From Thermomicrobiales bacterium (GTDB taxonomy: Bacteria > Chloroflexota > Chloroflexia > Thermomicrobiales > UBA6265), in assembly GCA_045804965.1 (NCBI GenBank), contig JBJMMD010000010.1, forward strand, positions 46,378 to 110,377: a stretch of 64,000 nucleotides of DNA, written 5' to 3'. The notes under the pieces are model-generated. The model did no database searches, was not told where the DNA came from, and worked only from the letters and a program-made list of their open reading frames with translations. A program made the position numbers and the translations under genes. Positions 3,714-17,419 of this stretch are shown here, piece by piece; position 1 is the first letter of the stretch, and every line of letters begins with the position of its first letter.

Positions 3714-4011
3714 CGACCTTGCTCGCGGGCGAAGACTGAACGGCCGGAATGATGGCCGACGGCTGGCGGAGTGTCAACGGCTCCCGCCGGCAATGGAGCT
3801 ACTCCTATGTTTGCTTAACGGTGTTCCAAGCGCAAACGAACGTGGGACTTCGATCCATCGGCGGATGACCGGACCGAGCGGCGGAGCGAGGTGAGCGCCG
3901 CCAATGGTCATGGCAATCATGCTTCTATGGCGGTTGAAGACAATCCGGACGTCGGCGCTTCAGGCTGGGCAACAGGTCGACCAAAATTAGGCCGGTTCGC
4001 GGGCTCGCAAC

Positions 4012-5010
4012 TCAGAACAGGCCGTTGTACACCGCACACGAGCGGCAAATCTCCGGCGGATCGTCGGAGGCCAGGCGTGCCCGAAAGGCCGCGAAGTCGG
4101 GCGCGTTCCAGACTGCTGCGGCACCCTGCTCGATCATATTCCCGAAGTTGGCGCGATCCGGGGTGGAAACCATGCAGCAAGGCATGGCCAGTCCTTGGTA
4201 GCTGACATAGGCCTGATCCCACGGCCAGCTGCACCGCTGCCTTCCCGGCGTGCCCGGCGGGTGGGGTCGCGGCCGGACGCGGGGTAGGCGCAAGTCGACC
4301 GCCAGCTCATCTGCCACCGCTCGCGCCTCGCCGAAGTAGTGGTCGACCCGGTCGGGGTCCTCCTCCTGCAGCGTCTGCTCCTCCACGAAGTCGCGCATTG
4401 GTCGATAGTGGGCAGGCAGACTCTCTTCGCCGAAGTCATGACACAAATGCTGAACCCAGAGGTGGTCCATCCGCCAGCGGTGCGCGAAGCGCACGAGATC
4501 GGGCAGCTCGTGCAGATTCTGGCGCATCACCACGCTCACCATCTGTACGCGAGGGTGGTCGCTGCCGAGCCGCTCCTTGGCCTCGCGCAGCAACCCGAGC
4601 CCGCGCACGACCTTCTCCAGCCGAGACCGCACGCGGATGCGTTCGTAAGTCTCGGCGGTCGCGCCGTCGACCGAGACGTGGAGGCGTGCGAGCCCGCTCG
4701 TCACGCAGGCCGCGGCGCGACGCTCATTGAGCAGCGTCAGATTCGTGTTCGTGCTGACCTGGACTCCCTTACCTGCCGCATAGGCGACCATGTCGAAGAA
4801 GCGCGGGTGCATCATCGGCTCGCCGAGCCCTTGCAAGTGCAACTCGTGCAACCCGGAAAATTGGTTGACGAGGCGAACGAACGCATCGAAGCTCATGAAG
4901 GCGAGCGGCCCGTATGGCGGACCGTCCTGACGGAACTGAATTGCGCACATTTGGCAACGCAGATTGCACTGTCCGACGGGCTCGATCTGCAGGAACGAAG
5001 GCAGGTCCAT
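4012..5010 (-). CDS. radical SAM protein with C-terminal SPASM-like Cys-rich domain
   Basis: CNLRCQMC is the CxxxCxxC cluster motif. The C-terminal Cys-rich region reads CSWPW...MPCCMV...CRSCAVYNG. I moved the start to ATG 5010, which has GGAAGGAG 5 nt upstream; the track ORF extends to 5091. Confidence 0.85.
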   Translation of the reverse strand: MDLPSFLQIEPVGQCNLRCQMCAIQFRQDGPPYGPLAFMSFDAFVRLVNQFSGLHELHLQGLGEPMMHPRFFDMVAYAAGKGVQVSTNTNLTLLNERRAAACVTSGLARLHVSVDGATAETYERIRVRSRLEKVVRGLGLLREAKERLGSDHPRVQMVSVVMRQNLHELPDLVRFAHRWRMDHLWVQHLCHDFGEESLPAHYRPMRDFVEEQTLQEEDPDRVDHYFGEARAVADELAVDLRLPRVRPRPHPPGTPGRQRCSWPWDQAYVSYQGLAMPCCMVSTPDRANFGNMIEQGAAAVWNAPDFAAFRARLASDDPPEICRSCAVYNGLF

Positions 5011-11869: not shown

Positions 11870-13369
11870 CTAACTCCAAACAGAAGCCATCGCCGAGCGA
11901 AATAGTGGGCTCTGACAAAGGCAGCCCGATTCTGATGGCGTCGTCGTGATGCGGTTGATCTCTCTCCGCTCGGGACGCCAGAATTGGAATCGGAAGGTGT
12001 TGTGCATCTCTGTCAGCATCGCTTCTGCCTCAGTCACGCCTCGCTTGAGGTACTCGGCCGCCAAGAGAACACCGGCCAGTGTTGAGACGAAGCCGACCGA
12101 CCATTCGGCGTCTTCGGCGACGTCGGCAAAACGTTGGAGGGTGGTACCCGAGATCGTCCCGCAATGGGTGACCGGGTCGATCAAGTAAGTATCAAGCGCA
12201 GCAGGCTCAACTCCGTGCGCTGCTGCCTTCTTCGCGCGTTCGCTTGATTCGAGATGGCGAAGCCCCTCAATCACGCTCGCATCAGGCAGCACCGCCTCGG
12301 GGCGGTTGCGACACCGCAGGCAGGGGCCGCCGGCTAACACGTCGTAGAGGTTCACCTGCGCCCGCATTTCGTTGGTCGAGGCACCCAACACAAGCCGCGG
12401 CAGCGCGTCCTGGATCGCGTGTCGAGAGCGGTTGCGGTCCACGGCCGAAATGACCAAATCAAGTCGCGGGGTGCCCTGGAACGCGTACCAATCGTCGAAT
12501 GACGCAGTGACCGGTTGGACGATGATGCTGCGTCCGGTGAACGCATGAGCGGCGGTCGACGCTTTGAGTGTCCCTAGCTGATTAAGACCAAACAAGACGC
12601 ATCGGTTGAGGTTGCTATCCGTTATTCCTTCTTTATCGTGGTCGAGCAGTATGAGCGAAGTAGTGACTTGAGGAAGGGCGTAGAGCACCTGGAACAGACC
12701 GTTTGCCACAGCGCCGGCGCCGACGATCACGGCCGAAGGTGGTATTGCGGCAGGTCGAGGCCCCTCACTTTCTGGAGGGGATGAAGAGACACGAAGGGTC
12801 AGTGCGTCCAACCAAACGTTTTGGGCGCTGCTGGTACTCTCCGGTCGACTCGACCGGATGAACTTGAAGACCTCGCCGGCGGTCAGGCACGCCGCCAGAT
12901 ATGCGCCAATCGGATTATCACTACTTCCCAGCTCACCGGTGATCTCGCTCCCAACATGACCTGCCCAGCCGATCGCCGTCGTCACTAATGCCAGATCGCC
13001 GTTGCCGATAGGACCGGGGCCGATTCGGATGCTGATACGTGTTCGCGGTCGGTCAGACCGCGACAGAACCGCAGGGTTGACCCGCTCGATTCCCGAGCGC
13101 AAACAGTCCGATAAGTCCGCGCAATCGCTCGGCATCAAAGGGCTCAAATGTCGAATCGGCGTTACGCCGGTTGGTATATCGAACTCGATGGTTCCGACTT
13201 CCTCGGTCTGCCGCGCAAGCAGGTTCACGAGCATCCAGGCCAGGTGCTGGCCCACCGTGGTGCCGGACGTAACTGCGTCAAGCGAGATGGTCACGCGCGC
13301 AAGACCGTGTTGCTCTGACAGGCGCCCACCCAGGGTTCCGCGATGCCGTTGAGCGATGTCAACACCCAC
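11870..13369 (-). CDS. bilD: E1-like ubiquitin-activating/ThiF-family adenylyltransferase (BilD-like)
   Basis: Rossmann/adenylation motifs VIVGAGAVANG...LILLDHDKEGITDSNLNRC, AVDRNRSR and GASTNEMRAQV. Cys pairs CLRC and CLC, plus Cys in THCGT. Start set to GTG 13369 (GAGGAAG 6 nt upstream), overlapping the JAB stop by 11 nt; the track ORF runs to 13603. Confidence 0.8.
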   Translation of the reverse strand: MGVDIAQRHRGTLGGRLSEQHGLARVTISLDAVTSGTTVGQHLAWMLVNLLARQTEEVGTIEFDIPTGVTPIRHLSPLMPSDCADLSDCLRSGIERVNPAVLSRSDRPRTRISIRIGPGPIGNGDLALVTTAIGWAGHVGSEITGELGSSDNPIGAYLAACLTAGEVFKFIRSSRPESTSSAQNVWLDALTLRVSSSPPESEGPRPAAIPPSAVIVGAGAVANGLFQVLYALPQVTTSLILLDHDKEGITDSNLNRCVLFGLNQLGTLKASTAAHAFTGRSIIVQPVTASFDDWYAFQGTPRLDLVISAVDRNRSRHAIQDALPRLVLGASTNEMRAQVNLYDVLAGGPCLRCRNRPEAVLPDASVIEGLRHLESSERAKKAAAHGVEPAALDTYLIDPVTHCGTISGTTLQRFADVAEDAEWSVGFVSTLAGVLLAAEYLKRGVTEAEAMLTEMHNTFRFQFWRPERREINRITTTPSESGCLCQSPLFRSAMASVWS

Positions 13370-13931
13370 GGGGTTCTTCCTCTGTCGCCATTTCCCATCG
13401 GAAATCGGCGAACCCGTCGATGATTTGGATTCGCTGAGCAACCTGCGGGTGGTCGAGCCGCTCCCACCGCCCACCGCGGCGCTCGTGCACCCCGATACCG
13501 GCCAACTCGTAATCCAACCCAGCCCCATAGTGCGGCCAGACGAAGGACAGCGCTCCCTCACGGGTACTGTAGGCGTTCTCATCGTCGTAGTAGGAGTGAT
13601 CAACCCCGGAGGAGGGATGGGTGTGCACTTGCGCCAGATTGGTTAGCCCTTGGCGACGCATGTCGGCCGCCAACCGGTGCAGCGACTCTGGAATGACCTG
13701 GTAGTAGCCCCGAGACTGCCGCAGTTGTGGCGCGGCCACCGTCGTCACTACTTGCAGTCCCTGACAAGTGACGCCGAACCAGAAACAGACCGCTTCGACC
13801 TTGGCGCGTCGGTACGGTTGGAAGAACTGGTGCGTGTCGCAAATAACGCTGCGCGGAAGAATGACTCTCCGAACTGGGGACGCAGTGGACGGGCTGTTAC
13901 TTGGTACAGGTGGTCGGTCCCGTGTCGTCAT
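13359..13931 (-). CDS. bilC: JAB/JAMM (MPN+) metalloprotease, deubiquitinase-like (BilC-like)
   Basis: Complete JAMM signature: the upstream Glu in KVEAVCFWFG, and HTHPSSGVDHSYYD, which matches HxHx7Sx2D. Its ATG overlaps the E2 stop (ATGA). Confidence 0.85.
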   Translation of the reverse strand: MTTRDRPPVPSNSPSTASPVRRVILPRSVICDTHQFFQPYRRAKVEAVCFWFGVTCQGLQVVTTVAAPQLRQSRGYYQVIPESLHRLAADMRRQGLTNLAQVHTHPSSGVDHSYYDDENAYSTREGALSFVWPHYGAGLDYELAGIGVHERRGGRWERLDHPQVAQRIQIIDGFADFRWEMATEEEPRGC

Positions 13932-14458
13932 TGACCCTGCCTCGCGTATCGCCCCTGAAAATGCTCGGAATTGAGCGCCTTATAGACCGTGTAGATGCAA
14001 GTACCCAAGGTGTGCTTATCTACACGCCATAGCTGATCGACCGTCGGGCTGTGACCGCTAAAGTAATAACCCAAGCTCATTGAACTGCAGACGAGTTGGG
14101 GGGCGAAAGGATAAGACTCAGGAAAACCTGTGTAGTTGGGGTGAACGGCGCAGTAGGGAGCCTGCAACTGTGGCAGGTGGTGCATGTCGCGCTCAAGGTC
14201 GTACTCCAGCGTATCTGGATTGACGAAGCGGACGTCCGGCGGATGGGCTGGATAGTATCCGCAGTTAAGGCGCAGGGTGAACCGGTCGCGCTCACCGGCG
14301 AAGTAGCGCGCCGGCACGACCGCGATCACGGTCAAGGGACCGTGTCGGCGCAGCTCCCAACCGTAGGCGGCCCCGCGTCGATGCCAGCCCGAGGACTGGA
14401 TGAAGCCATCCACCGCCGCCTCGGCCAGCGCTGGGTGGACCCGGGATGGCAGGTCCAC
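13928..14458 (-). CDS. bilB: E2-like ubiquitin-conjugating (UBC-fold) protein (BilB-like)
   Basis: HPN motif followed by a Cys: AVHPNYTGFPESYPFAPQLVCSSMSLGYY. Upstream PPDVRFVNP-type segment. The GTG start shares 1 nt with the Ubl stop (TAGTG). Confidence 0.75.
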   Translation of the reverse strand: MDLPSRVHPALAEAAVDGFIQSSGWHRRGAAYGWELRRHGPLTVIAVVPARYFAGERDRFTLRLNCGYYPAHPPDVRFVNPDTLEYDLERDMHHLPQLQAPYCAVHPNYTGFPESYPFAPQLVCSSMSLGYYFSGHSPTVDQLWRVDKHTLGTCIYTVYKALNSEHFQGRYARQGQ

Positions 14459-14766
14459 TAAGCGCCCCCCGGTACCACGTCAATGTCGAACTCAAATTCC
14501 AGCTTGCCGTGGTCGCCGGTGACACAGATCCCCTGCGCGGCGAGCGCATGCAGGGAGGAGCCTAAGTGAGGCGTCAAATCGACGCGCGGCTCGGCGTGGC
14601 AGAAGTACTGGTCGCCATCGCGGCGCTGCTCGCCCAACCTGTGGTAGGCCTCGTCGACTACTGCCTGGACCGTACTCTCGGTTTCAGCGTTAAACCGCTT
14701 GTCTTCCGCCGTAGAAGTGTAAAACGCGGTTACGTGGACTTTTCGGTGTTCCTGTTCCTGACTCAT
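14458..14766 (-). CDS. bilA: ubiquitin-like protein, single beta-grasp size, C-terminal GG followed by one Ala (BilA-like pro-form)
   Basis: 102 aa ending ...FEFDIDVVPGGA. First gene of the Ubl-E2-JAB-E1 string. ATG 14766 has GGGAGA 7 nt upstream. Confidence 0.7.
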   Translation of the reverse strand: MSQEQEHRKVHVTAFYTSTAEDKRFNAETESTVQAVVDEAYHRLGEQRRDGDQYFCHAEPRVDLTPHLGSSLHALAAQGICVTGDHGKLEFEFDIDVVPGGA

Positions 14767-14826
14767 GGCGGTGTCTCCCTAGCCGATCTCGCTCGATCAT
14801 TGTGCGCTTCAATGGTGCGCAACTGC

Positions 14827-14856
14827 ACTCTAGCAGCAAGCGCATGGGGATGTCAA
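14827..14856 (-). promoter_or_regulatory. candidate sigma70-type promoter of the Ubl-E2-JAB-E1 operon
   Basis: On the minus strand: TTGACA (14856-14851), an 18-nt spacer, then TAGAGT (14832-14827). This lies about 60 nt upstream of the Ubl ATG. Confidence 0.45.
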
Positions 14857-14868
14857 GCAAGCGCTTGC
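14857..14868. promoter_or_regulatory. candidate operator: perfect 12-bp palindrome GCAAGCGCTTGC
   Basis: It abuts the minus-strand -35 and overlaps the plus-strand -35. The half-site recurs: AGCAAGCGC at 14835-14843 and 14856-14864, and GCGCTT at 14804-14809. Confidence 0.45.
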
Positions 14869-14893
14869 AAACTCCAAGCGATCAGGATATAGT
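14865..14893 (+). promoter_or_regulatory. candidate sigma70-type promoter of the HTH/metallopeptidase pair
   Basis: TTGCAA (14865-14870), a 17-nt spacer, then TATAGT (14888-14893). RBS GGAGGAGG at 14910-14917 and ATG at 14924. Confidence 0.5.
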
Positions 14894-14923
14894 GTCAACC
14901 GAACCAGTTGGAGGAGGAATCCC

Positions 14924-15307
14924 ATGACGACCCCGCAGCCGGCAAGGGACTCAGAGATCGGCAAGCAATTGGAGCAGACGCGCAAAAGCCTGAATTGGTC
15001 GCTACGCGATGCGCAGCGTGAATCCGGAGTGTCAAATAGCTACATCAGCCAGATTGAACGGGGGGACGTTGACCCATCCCCAGAAGTGTTGCGGCGCCTC
15101 GGCCAAGCCTACGGAGTGCCATTCGAAGTCCTGATGGAGGCCGCTGGTTACCTTATCAAGCGCACGGAACTTAAGGAGTCAGGCAAAGTCCCGGCGTTCG
15201 TCTTTAGCGCGGCTGAAAAAATGGACGAGCGCGATTGGGAAGCCGCCCAGGCGTTTTTCCAAACGCTCCTCAAGATCCGTAAGAAGGATGGAGACCAGAC
15301 ACCATGA
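14924..15307 (+). CDS. XRE-family helix-turn-helix transcriptional regulator (CapH/ImmR/DdrO-like repressor candidate)
   Basis: HTH_XRE core SLRDAQRESGVSNSYISQIERGDVDPSPEVLRRLGQAYGV, with a roughly 50-aa C-terminal tail. Strong RBS. Confidence 0.85.
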   Translation: MTTPQPARDSEIGKQLEQTRKSLNWSLRDAQRESGVSNSYISQIERGDVDPSPEVLRRLGQAYGVPFEVLMEAAGYLIKRTELKESGKVPAFVFSAAEKMDERDWEAAQAFFQTLLKIRKKDGDQTP

Positions 15308-15325
15308 GCGACTCGGGGTAAGCGG

Positions 15326-16159
15326 ATGTCACTGCTGACCACCGACTCCTCGACGGTGCAGGAGGGCGCCTTGCTCTTCCTTGCCCACCTCGGTATCGCC
15401 GAGCCGCCGATTACTGTGGAGCGGGTGCTTGAAGGGCTCGGCGTCGAGTCTCACCCTTTGCCGACCTTTGACATCGACCGGCTGACTCCCGAGCAACTCA
15501 AGCACTATCACGCGCTCAAGCCCGTACGCGGCCTGCTCAGTCCGGCCGAGCAGCGCATCTACTTCAGCGACGAACTCTCCACCAGGCAATATCCATGGCT
15601 CATCTATCACGAATCCGGGCATGTCCTGATCGATTGGCATCGGGAAGCTCTCTATGTGGACAATGACTACCGTCTCAGTCAGCGGGCGATTGACCAAATG
15701 GAGAAGGAGGCCAACGAATTCGCGGGGCATTTGCAGTTCTTAGGGACTCGATTCGCCGACGAGTCGCGTTCCATGCCATTCGGGCTCGGCACGGCGGTGG
15801 ACCTAGCTGACCTCTTCGTTGCCACCTACGAGTCAGCAATCCGTCACTACGTTGAGACGCGCGAGGAGAATTGCATCTGTCTTGTGTGTCGCGTCATTCC
15901 AGCGGCAGAAGGAGCACGCACACTCCGCTTCCAGTACTTCATCAAGCCGAAGCCATCGCGCGGTTTCTGGAACTTTGAGTTCAAATCCGGGCACGTATTC
16001 CCCCTCGACGACGAGGTGGTGCAGTTGCTCAACCAGGGTGTACTGGATGGGGCCTCACCACACAACGGTACCTACTACAGCCAAGATTCTAAGCAGGCCT
16101 ATCAACGCCAGGTGTTTTGCAACGGTCACAGCGTCTTCGTCTTGGTTAGCACCATCTGA
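15326..16159 (+). CDS. ImmA/IrrE-family zinc metallopeptidase (CapP-like)
   Basis: HExxH in LIYHESGHVLIDWH, and downstream MEKEANEFAGHLQF (the E..AN.FA motif of the ImmA/IrrE family). It starts 19 nt after the HTH gene. Confidence 0.8.
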   Translation: MSLLTTDSSTVQEGALLFLAHLGIAEPPITVERVLEGLGVESHPLPTFDIDRLTPEQLKHYHALKPVRGLLSPAEQRIYFSDELSTRQYPWLIYHESGHVLIDWHREALYVDNDYRLSQRAIDQMEKEANEFAGHLQFLGTRFADESRSMPFGLGTAVDLADLFVATYESAIRHYVETREENCICLVCRVIPAAEGARTLRFQYFIKPKPSRGFWNFEFKSGHVFPLDDEVVQLLNQGVLDGASPHNGTYYSQDSKQAYQRQVFCNGHSVFVLVSTI

Positions 16160-16665
16160 GATTTTCGAACGCCTCCGAGACGCTGGTGAACTTTGAGGAT
16201 TTAGTTGAAGTCTTCAGACGAGACGGCTGCGATACCGTGTCCATAGATGCCCAGGACCAGCGCAATGCTCCGCTTACTTCGCCACAGTTGCGAATCAACA
16301 GACGGGACCAAGAAGAGGGTGTCTCCTTCGAGCGCATTGGTGAACCATTGCGGCCCACGCTTGTACGGCAAGACTCTGTCAGCCAGGCCATGATCGAATA
16401 TGTCTCTTCTCCAATTCGACGGTTCGGGCCGTCACACCCCGCTCACACGTGACAGTCTAGACGTGCAATACAGCCCCGCTCTTGTGGCTCGCCTTCTCGG
16501 CGGTGAACGGATTCTGCCACGCCGTCGAGTCAATCCCCGACTTACGCCCGTTCACCAATTCGCGTACGATCCGTGATCGCCGCCCAGGAGAAGCCGTCGC
16601 CATTGAAGCCGGGGGCCGGCGCCAAACCGAGCAGCGAACGCCGCCTCGCCGCGGCTGGAGTGGTC

Positions 16666-16679
16666 AGAATATTTGTTCT
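16666..16679. promoter_or_regulatory. SOS-box-like (Cheo-type GAAC-N4-GTTC) site AGAATATTTGTTCT, adjoining a TATAAT -10
   Basis: One mismatch to the AGAAC-N4-GTTCT palindrome. TATAAT lies at 16679-16684, about 45 nt upstream of the SRAP ATG. Confidence 0.35.
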
Positions 16680-16726
16680 ATAATTCTCTCGGAAATCCCT
16701 GCGCCGTCAGGGATCAGGAGGACGCT

Positions 16727-17419
16727 ATGTGCGGTCGGTACAGCCTCGAACACCTCACTGAGCTCTCGGAACGTTTCCGGGCGCGGCAGGTCCATCTGGA
16801 CTTGCCCGCTACCTACAACATCGCCCCCTCCCTGGAGTTGCCGGTCGTCGTCGAAGATGAGCACGGGGAGCGGGTCTTGCGATTGATGCAGTGGGGCCTG
16901 CAACGCGGCGGGCAGCTCGGAGGGGTGGCCCCGATCAATGCCCGGGCCGAGTCGGTGGCCGACAAGCCGATGTTCCGTGACCTGATTCGACACCGGAGGT
17001 GTCTGGTCCCGGCTTCCGGCTTCTATCTCTGGCAGCAGGTGGGGCTGCGCAAGCAACCCTACTTCGCGACGGTCAAAGACCAGGCGCTGTTCGCCTTCGC
17101 CGGGCTGTTCGACGAGATCGACCAAGGCGAGTGCCCTCCGCTCGCCTCGTACGTCGTGCTGACCACTCGCGCCAATGCGCGCGTAGCCGAGATCCAGGAC
17201 CGGATGCCAGTGATCATGCGGTCGGAGGCCGAAGGGCGCTGGCTCTCGCGGCAGATCACCGATATTGAGGACATCCAGCCGGTAATGGCGCCGTTGGGCT
17301 CGGACGAGGTCGTTATCTATCCAGTGGCGACCGCCGTGAATGACGCGCACCACGATGGGCCGGAGCTGATCCGGCCGCAGGAATCGAAGCAGCTGCGACT
17401 GGCCCGGCGGGCCAGTTGA
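16727..17419 (+). CDS. SOS response-associated peptidase (SRAP/YedK-type abasic-site processing protein)
   Basis: The trimmed protein starts MCGRYSL, the invariant Cys2 N-terminus of SRAP. AGGAGG RBS 6 nt upstream of ATG 16727. Confidence 0.9.
   Translation: MCGRYSLEHLTELSERFRARQVHLDLPATYNIAPSLELPVVVEDEHGERVLRLMQWGLQRGGQLGGVAPINARAESVADKPMFRDLIRHRRCLVPASGFYLWQQVGLRKQPYFATVKDQALFAFAGLFDEIDQGECPPLASYVVLTTRANARVAEIQDRMPVIMRSEAEGRWLSRQITDIEDIQPVMAPLGSDEVVIYPVATAVNDAHHDGPELIRPQESKQLRLARRAS

Follow-up and report, generated by a model that had tools for sequence, protein, structure and literature searches.

A CapH/CapP-type repressor–peptidase pair divergent from a BilABCD-like operon in a Thermomicrobiales genome

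The locus described here raises the question of whether a gene pair resembling the CapH/CapP regulators of bacterial defence systems controls the ubiquitin-like (Ubl) operon that diverges from it, and which signal would be involved. The original prediction, made from the letters of a 64-kb stretch of DNA from a Thermomicrobiales MAG (the window, meaning the whole stretch analysed), was that a CapH/CapP-like pair is the likely trigger of the Ubl system. Computational analysis established the gene pair, the folds and catalytic motifs of its products, a divergent architecture, an operator-like palindrome that is conserved, and a repeated association with Ubl operons. A CapH/CapP-type (DdrO/IrrE-type) module therefore probably controls transcription of the divergent BilABCD-like operon, and the pair would most likely keep this neighbouring ubiquitin-like anti-phage operon off until DNA damage occurs.

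The first gene of the pair (14924..15307, forward strand) encodes a 127-aa XRE-family repressor, its ATG start being preceded by the Shine–Dalgarno (SD) sequence GGAGGAGG, and the second (15326..16159, forward strand) encodes a 277-aa Zn metallopeptidase of the ImmA/IrrE family. The spacer between them is 18 nt (15308–15325), the 19 nt given previously being the difference between the coordinates. The repressor matched Pfam HTH_3 (3e-15) and the PADLOC capH model (8.7e-12, spanning residues 12–117), whilst the peptidase matched the PADLOC capP model (1.4e-11) and Pfam Peptidase_M78, the latter with 23.8 bits against a gathering cut-off of 22. HESGH occupies residues 95–99 of the peptidase and EKEANEFA residues 126–133, giving a HExxH zinc-peptidase motif with a downstream glutamate ligand (E126/E128). 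Residues E96, H99, E126, E128, A129, N130, F132 and A133 were invariant among 13 close homologues; in the wider family of 130 sequences H95 and H99 were invariant and E96, E126 and E128 were conserved in at least 95 % of members. ORFs, motifs and Pfam and PADLOC matches thus bore out the earlier description of an XRE HTH protein followed by a peptidase with HExxH and E..AN.FA motifs. Given these matches and the invariance of residues in homologues, the pairing is not due to chance, and the two genes are a repressor–protease pair of the known CapH/CapP (DdrO/IrrE) kind. NCBIfam gave a specific name to none of the six proteins encoded by the pair and the bil operon. As the peptidase barely exceeds the Pfam threshold, the pair might be regarded as a decayed or non-functional remnant beside a constitutive bil operon, but this is extremely improbable: both ORFs are intact, all catalytic residues are present, the putative operator described below is conserved, and the CapH-like protein is 64–94 % identical across loci, a higher conservation than that of the cargo.

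Both genes are divergent, by ORF layout, from an operon with the gene order Ubl–E2–JAB DUB–E1 and a multidomain ThiF-type E1, which is the BilABCD order. Its first gene, bilA-like (14458..14766, reverse strand), encodes a putative 102-aa ubiquitin-like protein ending in ...VVPGGA, for which there was no Pfam match and no PDB sequence match; homologues with 45–76 % identity were located at the equivalent position in related loci L006, L009, L014, L008, L029, L031 and L033. The bilB-like gene (13928..14458, reverse strand) encodes a putative E2 of 176 aa that matched PADLOC BilB (2.6e-4) and, weakly, Pfam DUF7665/BilB-like (0.038), and its orthologues in L029, L030, L033 and L034 have precomputed BilB-like matches. 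Metal_CEHH, the hallmark of Type II E2 proteins, gave no match to the window E2 even at E values up to 10, so the window operon is not demonstrably a Type II Bil operon; L013, a related locus, encodes an E2 that matched Metal_CEHH at 2.4e-7. The bilC-like gene (13359..13931, reverse strand) encodes a 190-aa JAB-family deubiquitinase-like protein (PADLOC BilC, 2.3e-11; Pfam Prok-JAB, 1.1e-4), and the bilD-like gene (11870..13369, reverse strand) encodes an E1, a ThiF-type adenylyltransferase (Pfam ThiF, 1e-11; PADLOC BilD, 3e-20). The latter probably starts at GTG 13369, preceded by the SD sequence GAGGAAG, to give 499 aa, in line with the 494–505 aa of called bilD orthologues; a start at TTG 13603, which gives the longest ORF, was rejected on account of a 245-nt overlap with bilC.

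The capH–capP pair and the bil operon have a common promoter region, an intergenic region of 157 bp. Consensus scanning found two promoter-like sites against 0.5 expected, both calls being consensus matches only and thus predictions. The predicted bil promoter (14827..14856, reverse strand; 10/12 consensus matches) consists of a −35 TTGACA (14856–14851), an 18-nt spacer and an extended −10 TG-n-TAGAGT (14832–14827). Back-to-back with it, the predicted capH–capP promoter (14865..14893, forward strand; 9/12 consensus matches) has a −35 TTGCAA, a 17-nt spacer and a −10 TATAGT. The −35 hexamers of both sites are overlapped by the putative main operator O1 (14854..14867), a palindrome CAAGC-AAGC-GCTTG of the form CAAGC-N4-GCTTG, with the core GCAAGCGCTTGC (14857–14868) being a perfect 12-mer palindrome; exact CAAGCNNNNGCTTG was present in one copy only in the 64-kb window, that of O1. 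A second operator-like repeat, O2 (AGCAAGCGCATG, 14835..14846), defined by a direct repeat (D1) and an inverted repeat (I1), lies 21 bp from O1 within the bil promoter spacer, adjoining the −10 of this promoter, and a third CAAGCG (14876–14881) falls within the capH promoter spacer. With O1 and the repeats placed over −35 boxes and spacers of back-to-back promoters, their occupation would be expected to repress both transcription units.

Comparison of related loci indicated that this arrangement is maintained. Of 12 independent related loci, 11 had the CAAGC-N4-GCTTG motif, allowing at most one mismatch, at a distance of 57–187 bp on the upstream side of capH; in six of the 11 there was no other copy, and the motif was kept whatever the cargo. 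In aligned intergenic regions the −10 and −35 blocks of the bil promoter were also conserved, and an O2 equivalent (AGCAAGCG or ATCAAGCG) adjoined the conserved CTGCA..CTA (−10) block in L006, L009, L008, L013 and L007.

In related loci of this clade, the pair was found beside nine distinct Bil-type operons (the window, L006, L009, L013, L014, L029, L031, L033 and L008), with the divergent layout of the window in L006, L009, L013, L014, L029, L031 and L033. Pairs of the same clade were located beside one 6E/Bub-type operon (L020), one unknown small operon and one type II CBASS, the last lying directly downstream of its pair (L028; CapH 69 % and CapP 42 % identical). Distant plasmid homologues of the CapP clade also stood beside Bub-type operons, and a search of genome contigs returned five distant loci. 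Because it adjoins Bil, 6E/Bub, CBASS and other cargo, the pair is a regulator that is portable, and in most cases its partner is a Ubl system.

According to the literature, prophages and ICEs widely carry XRE plus M78 pairs, PDB entry 7t5t has the label ‘CapP toxin’, and the window pair could be a self-contained XRE–COG2856 module (toxin–antitoxin-like or the ImmR/ImmA immunity switch of a mobile element) that adjoins the Bil operon without regulating it. The region around the module in L006 is mobile-element-like, with an integrase, ArdC and ParA, close homologues in L007 and L012 do not adjoin a Bil operon, and GC content is lower across the island, all of which would fit such a module. In the window, however, no integrase, phage or conjugation genes flank the pair, no tRNA was present when looked for in the prophage/ICE context check, and 50,697 phage records yielded no match. 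Moreover, the operator overlaps the cargo-side −35 box and spacer, the cargo promoter is conserved with it, and the divergent arrangement with Ubl operons recurs at 38–84 % CapP identity amongst different flanks and phyla. We therefore regard an independent module as very unlikely. Of the two flanks in the window, one carries LacI with a sugar ABC transporter and the second SRAP, DUF3072, DUF2199 and DAO; as these are housekeeping genes, the bil operon is the only plausible target, and regulation of this operon by the pair is the reading followed below.

The AF2 model of the repressor comprises an HTH domain (residues ~11–73, helices at pLDDT >90), a disordered linker (74–91) and a tail with a short helix (92–97) and a long helix (102–122), the tail being modelled at low confidence (pLDDT 54–67). 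Fold matches included DdrO (6jq1 and 6rnx) and the N-terminal domain of CapH (7t5u; rmsd 1.6 over 62 columns for the HTH), and the HTH matched DdrO by sequence also (6jq1, 8e-6; 6rnz, 1.2e-4). The modelled succession of HTH, linker and two-helix tail agrees with the published description of CapH, in which the cleavage site lies in the first helix of a C-terminal two-helix dimerisation domain. In a 36-sequence alignment the tail motif VPAFVFSAAE..D..DW.AAQAFF, including PAFVFSAA, was invariant, with P90, F92, S95, A96, A97, D104, W105 and A110 among the invariant residues of the CapH-like protein. An equivalence of W25 with W35 of E. coli CapH, a CapP-contact residue, was considered and dropped, as the helix registers had no obvious match.

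[quoted passage not shown] Foldseek returned the PprI/IrrE structures 8sln, 3dti and 8slm (5e-12 to 4e-11), the best being ssDNA-bound PprI 8sln (4.6e-12), and Thauera CapP 7t5t (1e-6). These alignments were full-length (~275 columns for IrrE/PprI and 312 for 7t5t), and the fold was nearer to IrrE/PprI (TM 0.58–0.69) than to CapP 7t5t (TM 0.52), with a sequence identity to IrrE/PprI of 15–16 % in the structural alignment. Searches of PDB sequences with the single peptidase or with a 13-sequence profile reached no solved CapP or IrrE. The 130-sequence family profile matched IrrE (6e-16, covering positions 68–274 and so extending through the GAF domain) and CapP (1e-13), and it is this profile and the fold comparison only that link the peptidase to IrrE and CapP.

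The peptidase has cysteines at positions 183, 185, 188 and 265, and a cluster of them had been put forward as a candidate metal or regulatory site. The letters are indeed present, but conservation does not support the proposal: neither C188 nor C265 is constant even within the set of 13 close homologues, and C185 is a cysteine in just nine of 130 family members. A Zn or Fe–S site was rejected, as the sole widespread cysteine is C183 (96/130), which lies opposite alanine in the solved Thauera CapP and valine in IrrE/PprI. The Zn/Fe–S idea had been prompted by a fold match to the M. tuberculosis regulator 6d2s.

The cysteine switch of CapP, located between HExxH and the third zinc ligand, is absent from the peptidase. 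In the 130-sequence profile alignment Asp112 aligns with the switch residue Cys113 of Thauera CapP and is of the same residue type as in IrrE; across the family this column is D in 65/130 and C in 57/130 sequences, and all Bil-linked relatives read YLD. A Cys switch is present in 33 % of CBASS CapPs and absent from 67 % according to the CapP literature, so it is not a defining feature. Its absence here may nevertheless mean that basal activity is less tightly locked than in E. coli CapP. When the profile alignment was read by hand, the E. coli CapP ssDNA contacts R90 and K195 were opposite Gln88 and Gln203, whilst Y204, a conserved aromatic residue, occupied the position of W196, with R87 adjacent. 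With glutamine replacing the basic contacts but Y204 and R87 retained, ssDNA sensing by the peptidase is plausible, not assured.

These residues leave room for a different signal acting through the same architecture on the same target, whether free Zn2+ or redox stress, both reported for IrrE, or another GAF ligand or phage protein, or for an enzyme that is partly constitutive because it lacks a Cys switch. An aspartate, Asp112, takes the place of the switch cysteine, which is also the case in IrrE; IrrE cleaves DdrO without ssDNA and needs free zinc according to the literature, both basic contacts are glutamine, and the best fold matches are to IrrE/PprI and not to CapP. Yet the top match is to the ssDNA-bound form of PprI, PprI/IrrE is itself stimulated by ssDNA, most CBASS CapPs also lack the Cys switch and the aromatic position is conserved, and on balance we consider such a signal unlikely. 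A broader version, which we hold to be rather unlikely too, is that the Bil-linked CapP clade forms a mechanistically distinct branch. Its invariant Asp112 could be an ‘aspartate switch’ or the mark of a switch-less IrrE-like enzyme, the clade could answer a signal other than ssDNA, given the glutamines at two basic ssDNA contacts, and the highly conserved, PAFVFSAA-bearing CapH, the private operator CAAGC-N4-GCTTG and the CapP could constitute a dedicated regulator lineage. If true, several Ubl-conjugation systems (Type I-like Bil, Type II Bil and 6E/Bub) as well as CBASS would have exchanged this lineage.

Under the preferred reading of DNA-damage-responsive repression, we infer DNA binding, activation by ssDNA, cleavage and its site, and de-repression from characterised homologues. 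The CapH-like protein would form dimers or higher oligomers via its two-helix C-terminal tail, occupy the intergenic CAAGC-N4-GCTTG palindrome together with the CAAGCG repeats that flank it, and so repress both bilABCD and capH–capP. A damage signal, by homology most likely ssDNA bound in the peptidase–GAF interdomain groove, would activate the CapP-like Zn peptidase, which would then cut the CapH-like protein where its tail begins, within or beside the invariant PAFVFSAA. Cleavage would part the HTH from the oligomerisation domain, free the operator and raise bil expression. The pair would thus act as a transcriptional de-repressor and not as an activator of conjugation. The CapH/CapP-like assignment of the original prediction therefore holds, whilst the word ‘trigger’ overstates the role, since in the CBASS system that has been tested CapP raises expression yet is dispensable for phage protection, constitutive expression protecting better (CapH/CapP literature).

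The closest precedents are the CapH/CapP pairs of CBASS in E. coli MS115-1 and Thauera sp. K11 (Lau et al., 2022, 10.1101/2022.04.27.489752; Calloji et al., 2026, preprint), which have the same HTH-then-peptidase order. As in those systems, the window pair lies ahead of a defence operon and is transcribed away from it, combines an XRE HTH and a modelled two-helix C-terminal tail (the oligomerisation tail in CapH) with a HExxH/Glu peptidase, helical linker and GAF domain, and has a conserved, here putative, operator near the cargo −35. It differs from Cys-switch CapPs in having Asp112, which is within known CapP variation, and from solved CBASS CapP in being too diverged for a direct PDB sequence match. 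The repressor is also longer (127 aa, compared with 107 residues in CapH), with a longer linker and, as a feature of its own, the invariant PAFVFSAA motif; the operator sequence is clade-specific and the cargo is a Bil-like operon.

DdrO/IrrE (PprI) of Deinococcus provides the best structural match to the window peptidase (E ~1e-11), likewise lacks a Cys switch, with an Asp in its place, and resembles the window repressor in the length of DdrO and in its HTH by both sequence and fold. DdrO and IrrE control a chromosomal DNA-repair regulon via RDRM sites and are not known to be arranged as a divergent cassette beside a defence operon, unlike the window pair. ImmR/ImmA of ICEBs1 and phage phi105 is likewise an HTH repressor cleaved by a HExxH peptidase upon DNA damage, as described in the literature, and Pfam M78 is common to both peptidases. 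ImmR/ImmA control mobile-element excision, however, whereas the window pair has neither flanking mobile-element genes nor a relative in the phage records searched. ImmA is not known to have an IrrE-type GAF domain.

Association of CapH/CapP with Bil operons has already been published, and the locus is a further instance of a system whose kind was known before. CapH/CapP were reported in divergent orientation upstream of 25 among 162 (15 %) Type II Bil operons, and 31 % of Bub operons also have them as companions (Chambers et al., 2023, 10.1101/2023.09.26.559546; PMC11601596). The window has the same bilA–bilB–bilC–bilD order with capH–capP upstream on the opposite strand and a common promoter region, its E1 gave a match to 8tyz, the solved BilD of E. 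aridi (7.6e-18), and the Bub association is paralleled by same-clade CapP relatives beside 6E/Bub-type operons. Unlike Type II Bil systems, its E2 gives no Metal_CEHH match and only weakly matches BilB and BilB-like models, and the host belongs to the Thermomicrobiales, whereas most reported Type II Bil operons are from Rhizobiaceae.

The current picture of how CapH/CapP–Ubl systems work is unchanged by the details of this locus, which adds a case from the Thermomicrobiales (Chloroflexota) to the published pattern of DNA-damage-responsive CapH/CapP placed before bacterial ubiquitin-like defence operons. What it offers are specifics for this clade, namely a candidate operator, CAAGC-N4-GCTTG, over both −35 boxes and a candidate cleavage or recognition motif, PAFVFSAA, and these could be used in reporter and cleavage assays and in the annotation of similar loci. 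Cargos of the Bil, Bub-type and CBASS kinds share one regulator lineage.

Both ORFs were confirmed at the positions first assigned to them, and family models agreed with the original prediction. The capH-like gene (14924-15307, + strand), whose ATG lies six bases after GGAGGAGG, encodes a 127 aa XRE-type helix-turn-helix (HTH) repressor that matched Pfam HTH_3 (3e-15) and PADLOC capH (8.7e-12, residues 12-117). After 18 nt follows the capP-like gene (15326-16159, + strand), encoding a 277 aa peptidase that matched Peptidase_M78 (23.8 bits, cut-off 22) and PADLOC capP (1.4e-11, residues 30-188); NCBI lists an identical protein as 'ImmA/IrrE family metallo-endopeptidase [Thermomicrobiales bacterium]'. 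The two genes share a reading frame (starts 402 nt apart, with TGA and six codons between), and read-through would give a CapH-CapP fusion, of a kind reported adjoining DISARM systems. The shared frame is probably fortuitous, since the genes are out of frame in L006 (labels of this form denote related loci in other genomes).

The peptidase carries HESGH at residues 95-99, EKEANEFA at 126-133 and cysteines at 183, 185, 188 and 265. Residues E96, H99, E126, E128, A129, N130, F132 and A133 were invariant among its 13 close homologues from a word-indexed search, and an exhaustive profile search returned 1063, 599 and 25 cluster representatives at E≤1e-3, ≤1e-10 and ≤1e-30, respectively, mostly of 270-310 aa and matching over the full length. 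The AF2 model (pLDDT 83) gave full-length fold matches to ssDNA-bound PprI (8sln, E 4.6e-12), IrrE (3dti) and PprI (8slm; TM up to 0.69), the M. tuberculosis regulator 6d2s and Thauera CapP (7t5t, E 1e-6, TM 0.52). These matches point to a predicted arrangement of peptidase, helical linker and GAF domains, the architecture that defines IrrE and CapP. A profile of 130 family sequences matched IrrE/PprI (6e-16) and CapP (1e-13).

In Thauera CapP, the regulatory cysteine between HExxH and the third zinc ligand, known as the cysteine switch, is Cys113. Opposite it in the 130-sequence profile alignment was Asp112 of the window peptidase, each lying 13 residues past the second His; the column (window 15659-15661) held Asp in 65 and Cys in 57 of the 130 sequences (alignment A3). 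As Asp also occupies this position in IrrE/PprI, and YLD is found there in every Bil-linked relative, the window peptidase is of the switch-less, IrrE-like type. Lack of the switch is within known CapP variation, only 33 % of CBASS CapPs carrying it, and a switch-like role for Asp here was not discussed in the CapP studies compared. The CBASS-linked CapP of L028 reads YLDCD, with Cys one residue past the Asp position. The proposal that the C-terminal cysteine cluster forms a conserved metal or regulatory site was not supported by the alignments: C188 and C265 varied even among the 13 closest homologues, C185 was Cys in 9/130 family members, and at the aligned position of C183 (Cys in 96/130) Thauera CapP has Ala and IrrE has Val. 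In the AF2 model C183, C185 and C188 all lie on the first GAF β-strand (residues 183-192).

The CapH-like protein shared ≥55 % identity with 44 clusters. Conservation in a 36-sequence alignment covered the HTH and a C-terminal motif, (V/I)PAFVFSAAE..D..DW.AAQAFF..LL, with P90, F92, S95, A96, A97, D104, W105 and A110 invariant. In the AF2 model, five confidently predicted helices form the HTH (residues 11-73); after a disordered linker (74-91) come a short helix (92-97) and a long one of lower confidence (102-122). Fold matches were to generic XRE proteins, DdrO and the N-terminal domain of CapH among them. The modelled fold by itself does not discriminate between families. The modelled layout of HTH, linker and helical C-terminal part corresponds to that of published CapH, whose C-terminal dimerization domain is cut by CapP in its first helix, at F82|R83. 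By analogy, a CapP-like cut is predicted within or beside PAFVFSAA.

Directly upstream of capH, on the opposite strand, four genes follow the order bilA-bilB-bilC-bilD: bilA-like (14458-14766; 102 aa, ending PGGA), bilB-like (13928-14458; 176 aa; PADLOC BilB 2.6e-4), a bilC-like JAB protein gene (13359-13931; 190 aa; BilC 2.3e-11) and a bilD-like ThiF-type E1 gene (11870-13369; BilD 3e-20; best PDB sequence match E1(BilD) 8tyz, 7.6e-18). The bilB-like E2 did not match Metal_CEHH, and the operon was therefore classed as Bil-like without subtype. In its longest form, starting at TTG 13603, the bilD ORF (- strand) additionally covers 13369-13603 and shares 245 nt with bilC, which is read in a different frame. 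The first 90 residues of this form, including 78 upstream of GTG 13369, were ~40 % identical to the corresponding alternative frame of L009, L014 and L006 (E 2e-8 to 4e-3). Conservation of bilC in GC-rich DNA probably explains this similarity, and the true start is probably GTG 13369, which has a Shine-Dalgarno (SD) sequence.

The island is flanked by housekeeping genes, LacI and a sugar ABC transporter on one side and SRAP, DUF3072, DUF2199 and an FAD oxidoreductase on the other, and no tRNA was found near it. Its GC content (~55-62 %, against 65-69 % in most of the flanks) is weak evidence for horizontal acquisition, because the neighbouring ABC-transporter genes are also at ~58-61 %; GC falls to 55-60 % at 14600-16800, over capH-capP and the 513 bp gap past capP. 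Beyond that gap, the SRAP (SOS-response-associated peptidase) gene (16673-17419, + strand) overlaps the DUF3072 gene by 4 nt. In L006 a SRAP gene (3871-4455, - strand; product 38 % identical) lies directly past bilD, followed by two small genes and a Y-family polymerase (IMS) gene. SRAP was not found at the other related loci, and its adjacency may therefore be coincidental.

The 157 bp region between capH and the bil operon contains two predicted back-to-back σ70-like sites (0.5 in shuffles): TTGACA, an 18 nt spacer and TG-n-TAGAGT on the bil side, and TTGCAA, a 17 nt spacer and TATAGT on the capH side. A candidate operator palindrome, CAAGCAAGCGCTTG (14854-14867), extends into both -35 hexamers; a second operator-like copy, AGCAAGCGCATG (14835-14846), lies within the bil promoter spacer and a third repeat, CAAGCG (14876-14881), within the capH promoter spacer. 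In the 64 kb window the palindrome pattern has a single exact match. Copies with ≤1 mismatch were not enriched there (4 observed, 2.6 by chance), and the operator argument thus rests on conservation: among 12 independent loci, 11 have such a motif 57-187 bp upstream of capH, six of them as the sole copy, irrespective of cargo. On the bil side the -10 and -35 blocks align among loci.

Related loci shared 64-94 % identity in CapH and 38-84 % in CapP. Far from having unrelated neighbours only, the pair recurred divergently from Ubl-E2-JAB-E1 operons, so the original interpretation stands. Besides the window, these loci were L006 (CapP 84 % identical), L009/L010 (57 %), L014/L015 (44 %), L013 (44 %; Type II, as its E2 is CEHH-type), L029/L030, L031/L032, L033/L034 (Actinomycetota) and L008 (bilA at the contig end). 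In L031 (9372-13257) and L032 (8784-12203) the module adjoins a cluster of ThsB_TIR, TIR_2, LD_cluster3 and HIT genes. The cluster resembles a Thoeris defence island, which would fit a role of the Bil cargo in defence. Elsewhere the pair stood beside a 6E/Bub-type operon (L020: Multi_ubiq, Prok-E2_E, JAB, ThiF), small unknown ORFs (L007) or, co-directionally, a type II CBASS (L028, 257-10714), whose genes are SAVED, SMODS and ThiF-type Cap2-like; L028 has the clade's palindrome upstream of capH and a LexA gene 3 kb off. A close CapP-like homologue in L012 (592-2678; 48 % identical, tblastn) has no adjacent CapH; an apparent HTH-M78 fusion gene (broken by masked bases) precedes it and a large TPR protein gene follows. 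This gene is either an orphan or a variant with different wiring. On plasmids, distant relatives (25-27 % identical) lie divergently beside operons of multiubiquitin, ThiF and DUF6527 genes, and no relative occurred in phage records.

Earlier CapH/CapP work noted related pairs adjoining ubiquitin-like operons. According to Chambers et al. (2023; 10.1101/2023.09.26.559546; PMC11601596), 25 of 162 Type II Bil operons are accompanied by CapH/CapP, which with a single exception lie upstream in opposite orientation and share the promoter region. Both genes also occur with 31 % of Bub operons; the association with Ubl systems is therefore already known. Family models, fold and neighbourhood upheld the core of the original prediction, a CapH/CapP-like pair controlling the Ubl system, but 'trigger' was an overstatement: in the tested CBASS system capP was dispensable for protection and constitutive expression protected better. 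By analogy, the window pair would be a transcriptional de-repressor rather than a trigger of effector chemistry. The locus is a further example of the known CapH/CapP-Bil pairing, in a Thermomicrobiales MAG, and adds minor new details: a candidate operator specific to this clade, the PAFVFSAA motif, an Asp in place of the switch cysteine, and a change of cargo between Bil, Bub-type and CBASS operons.
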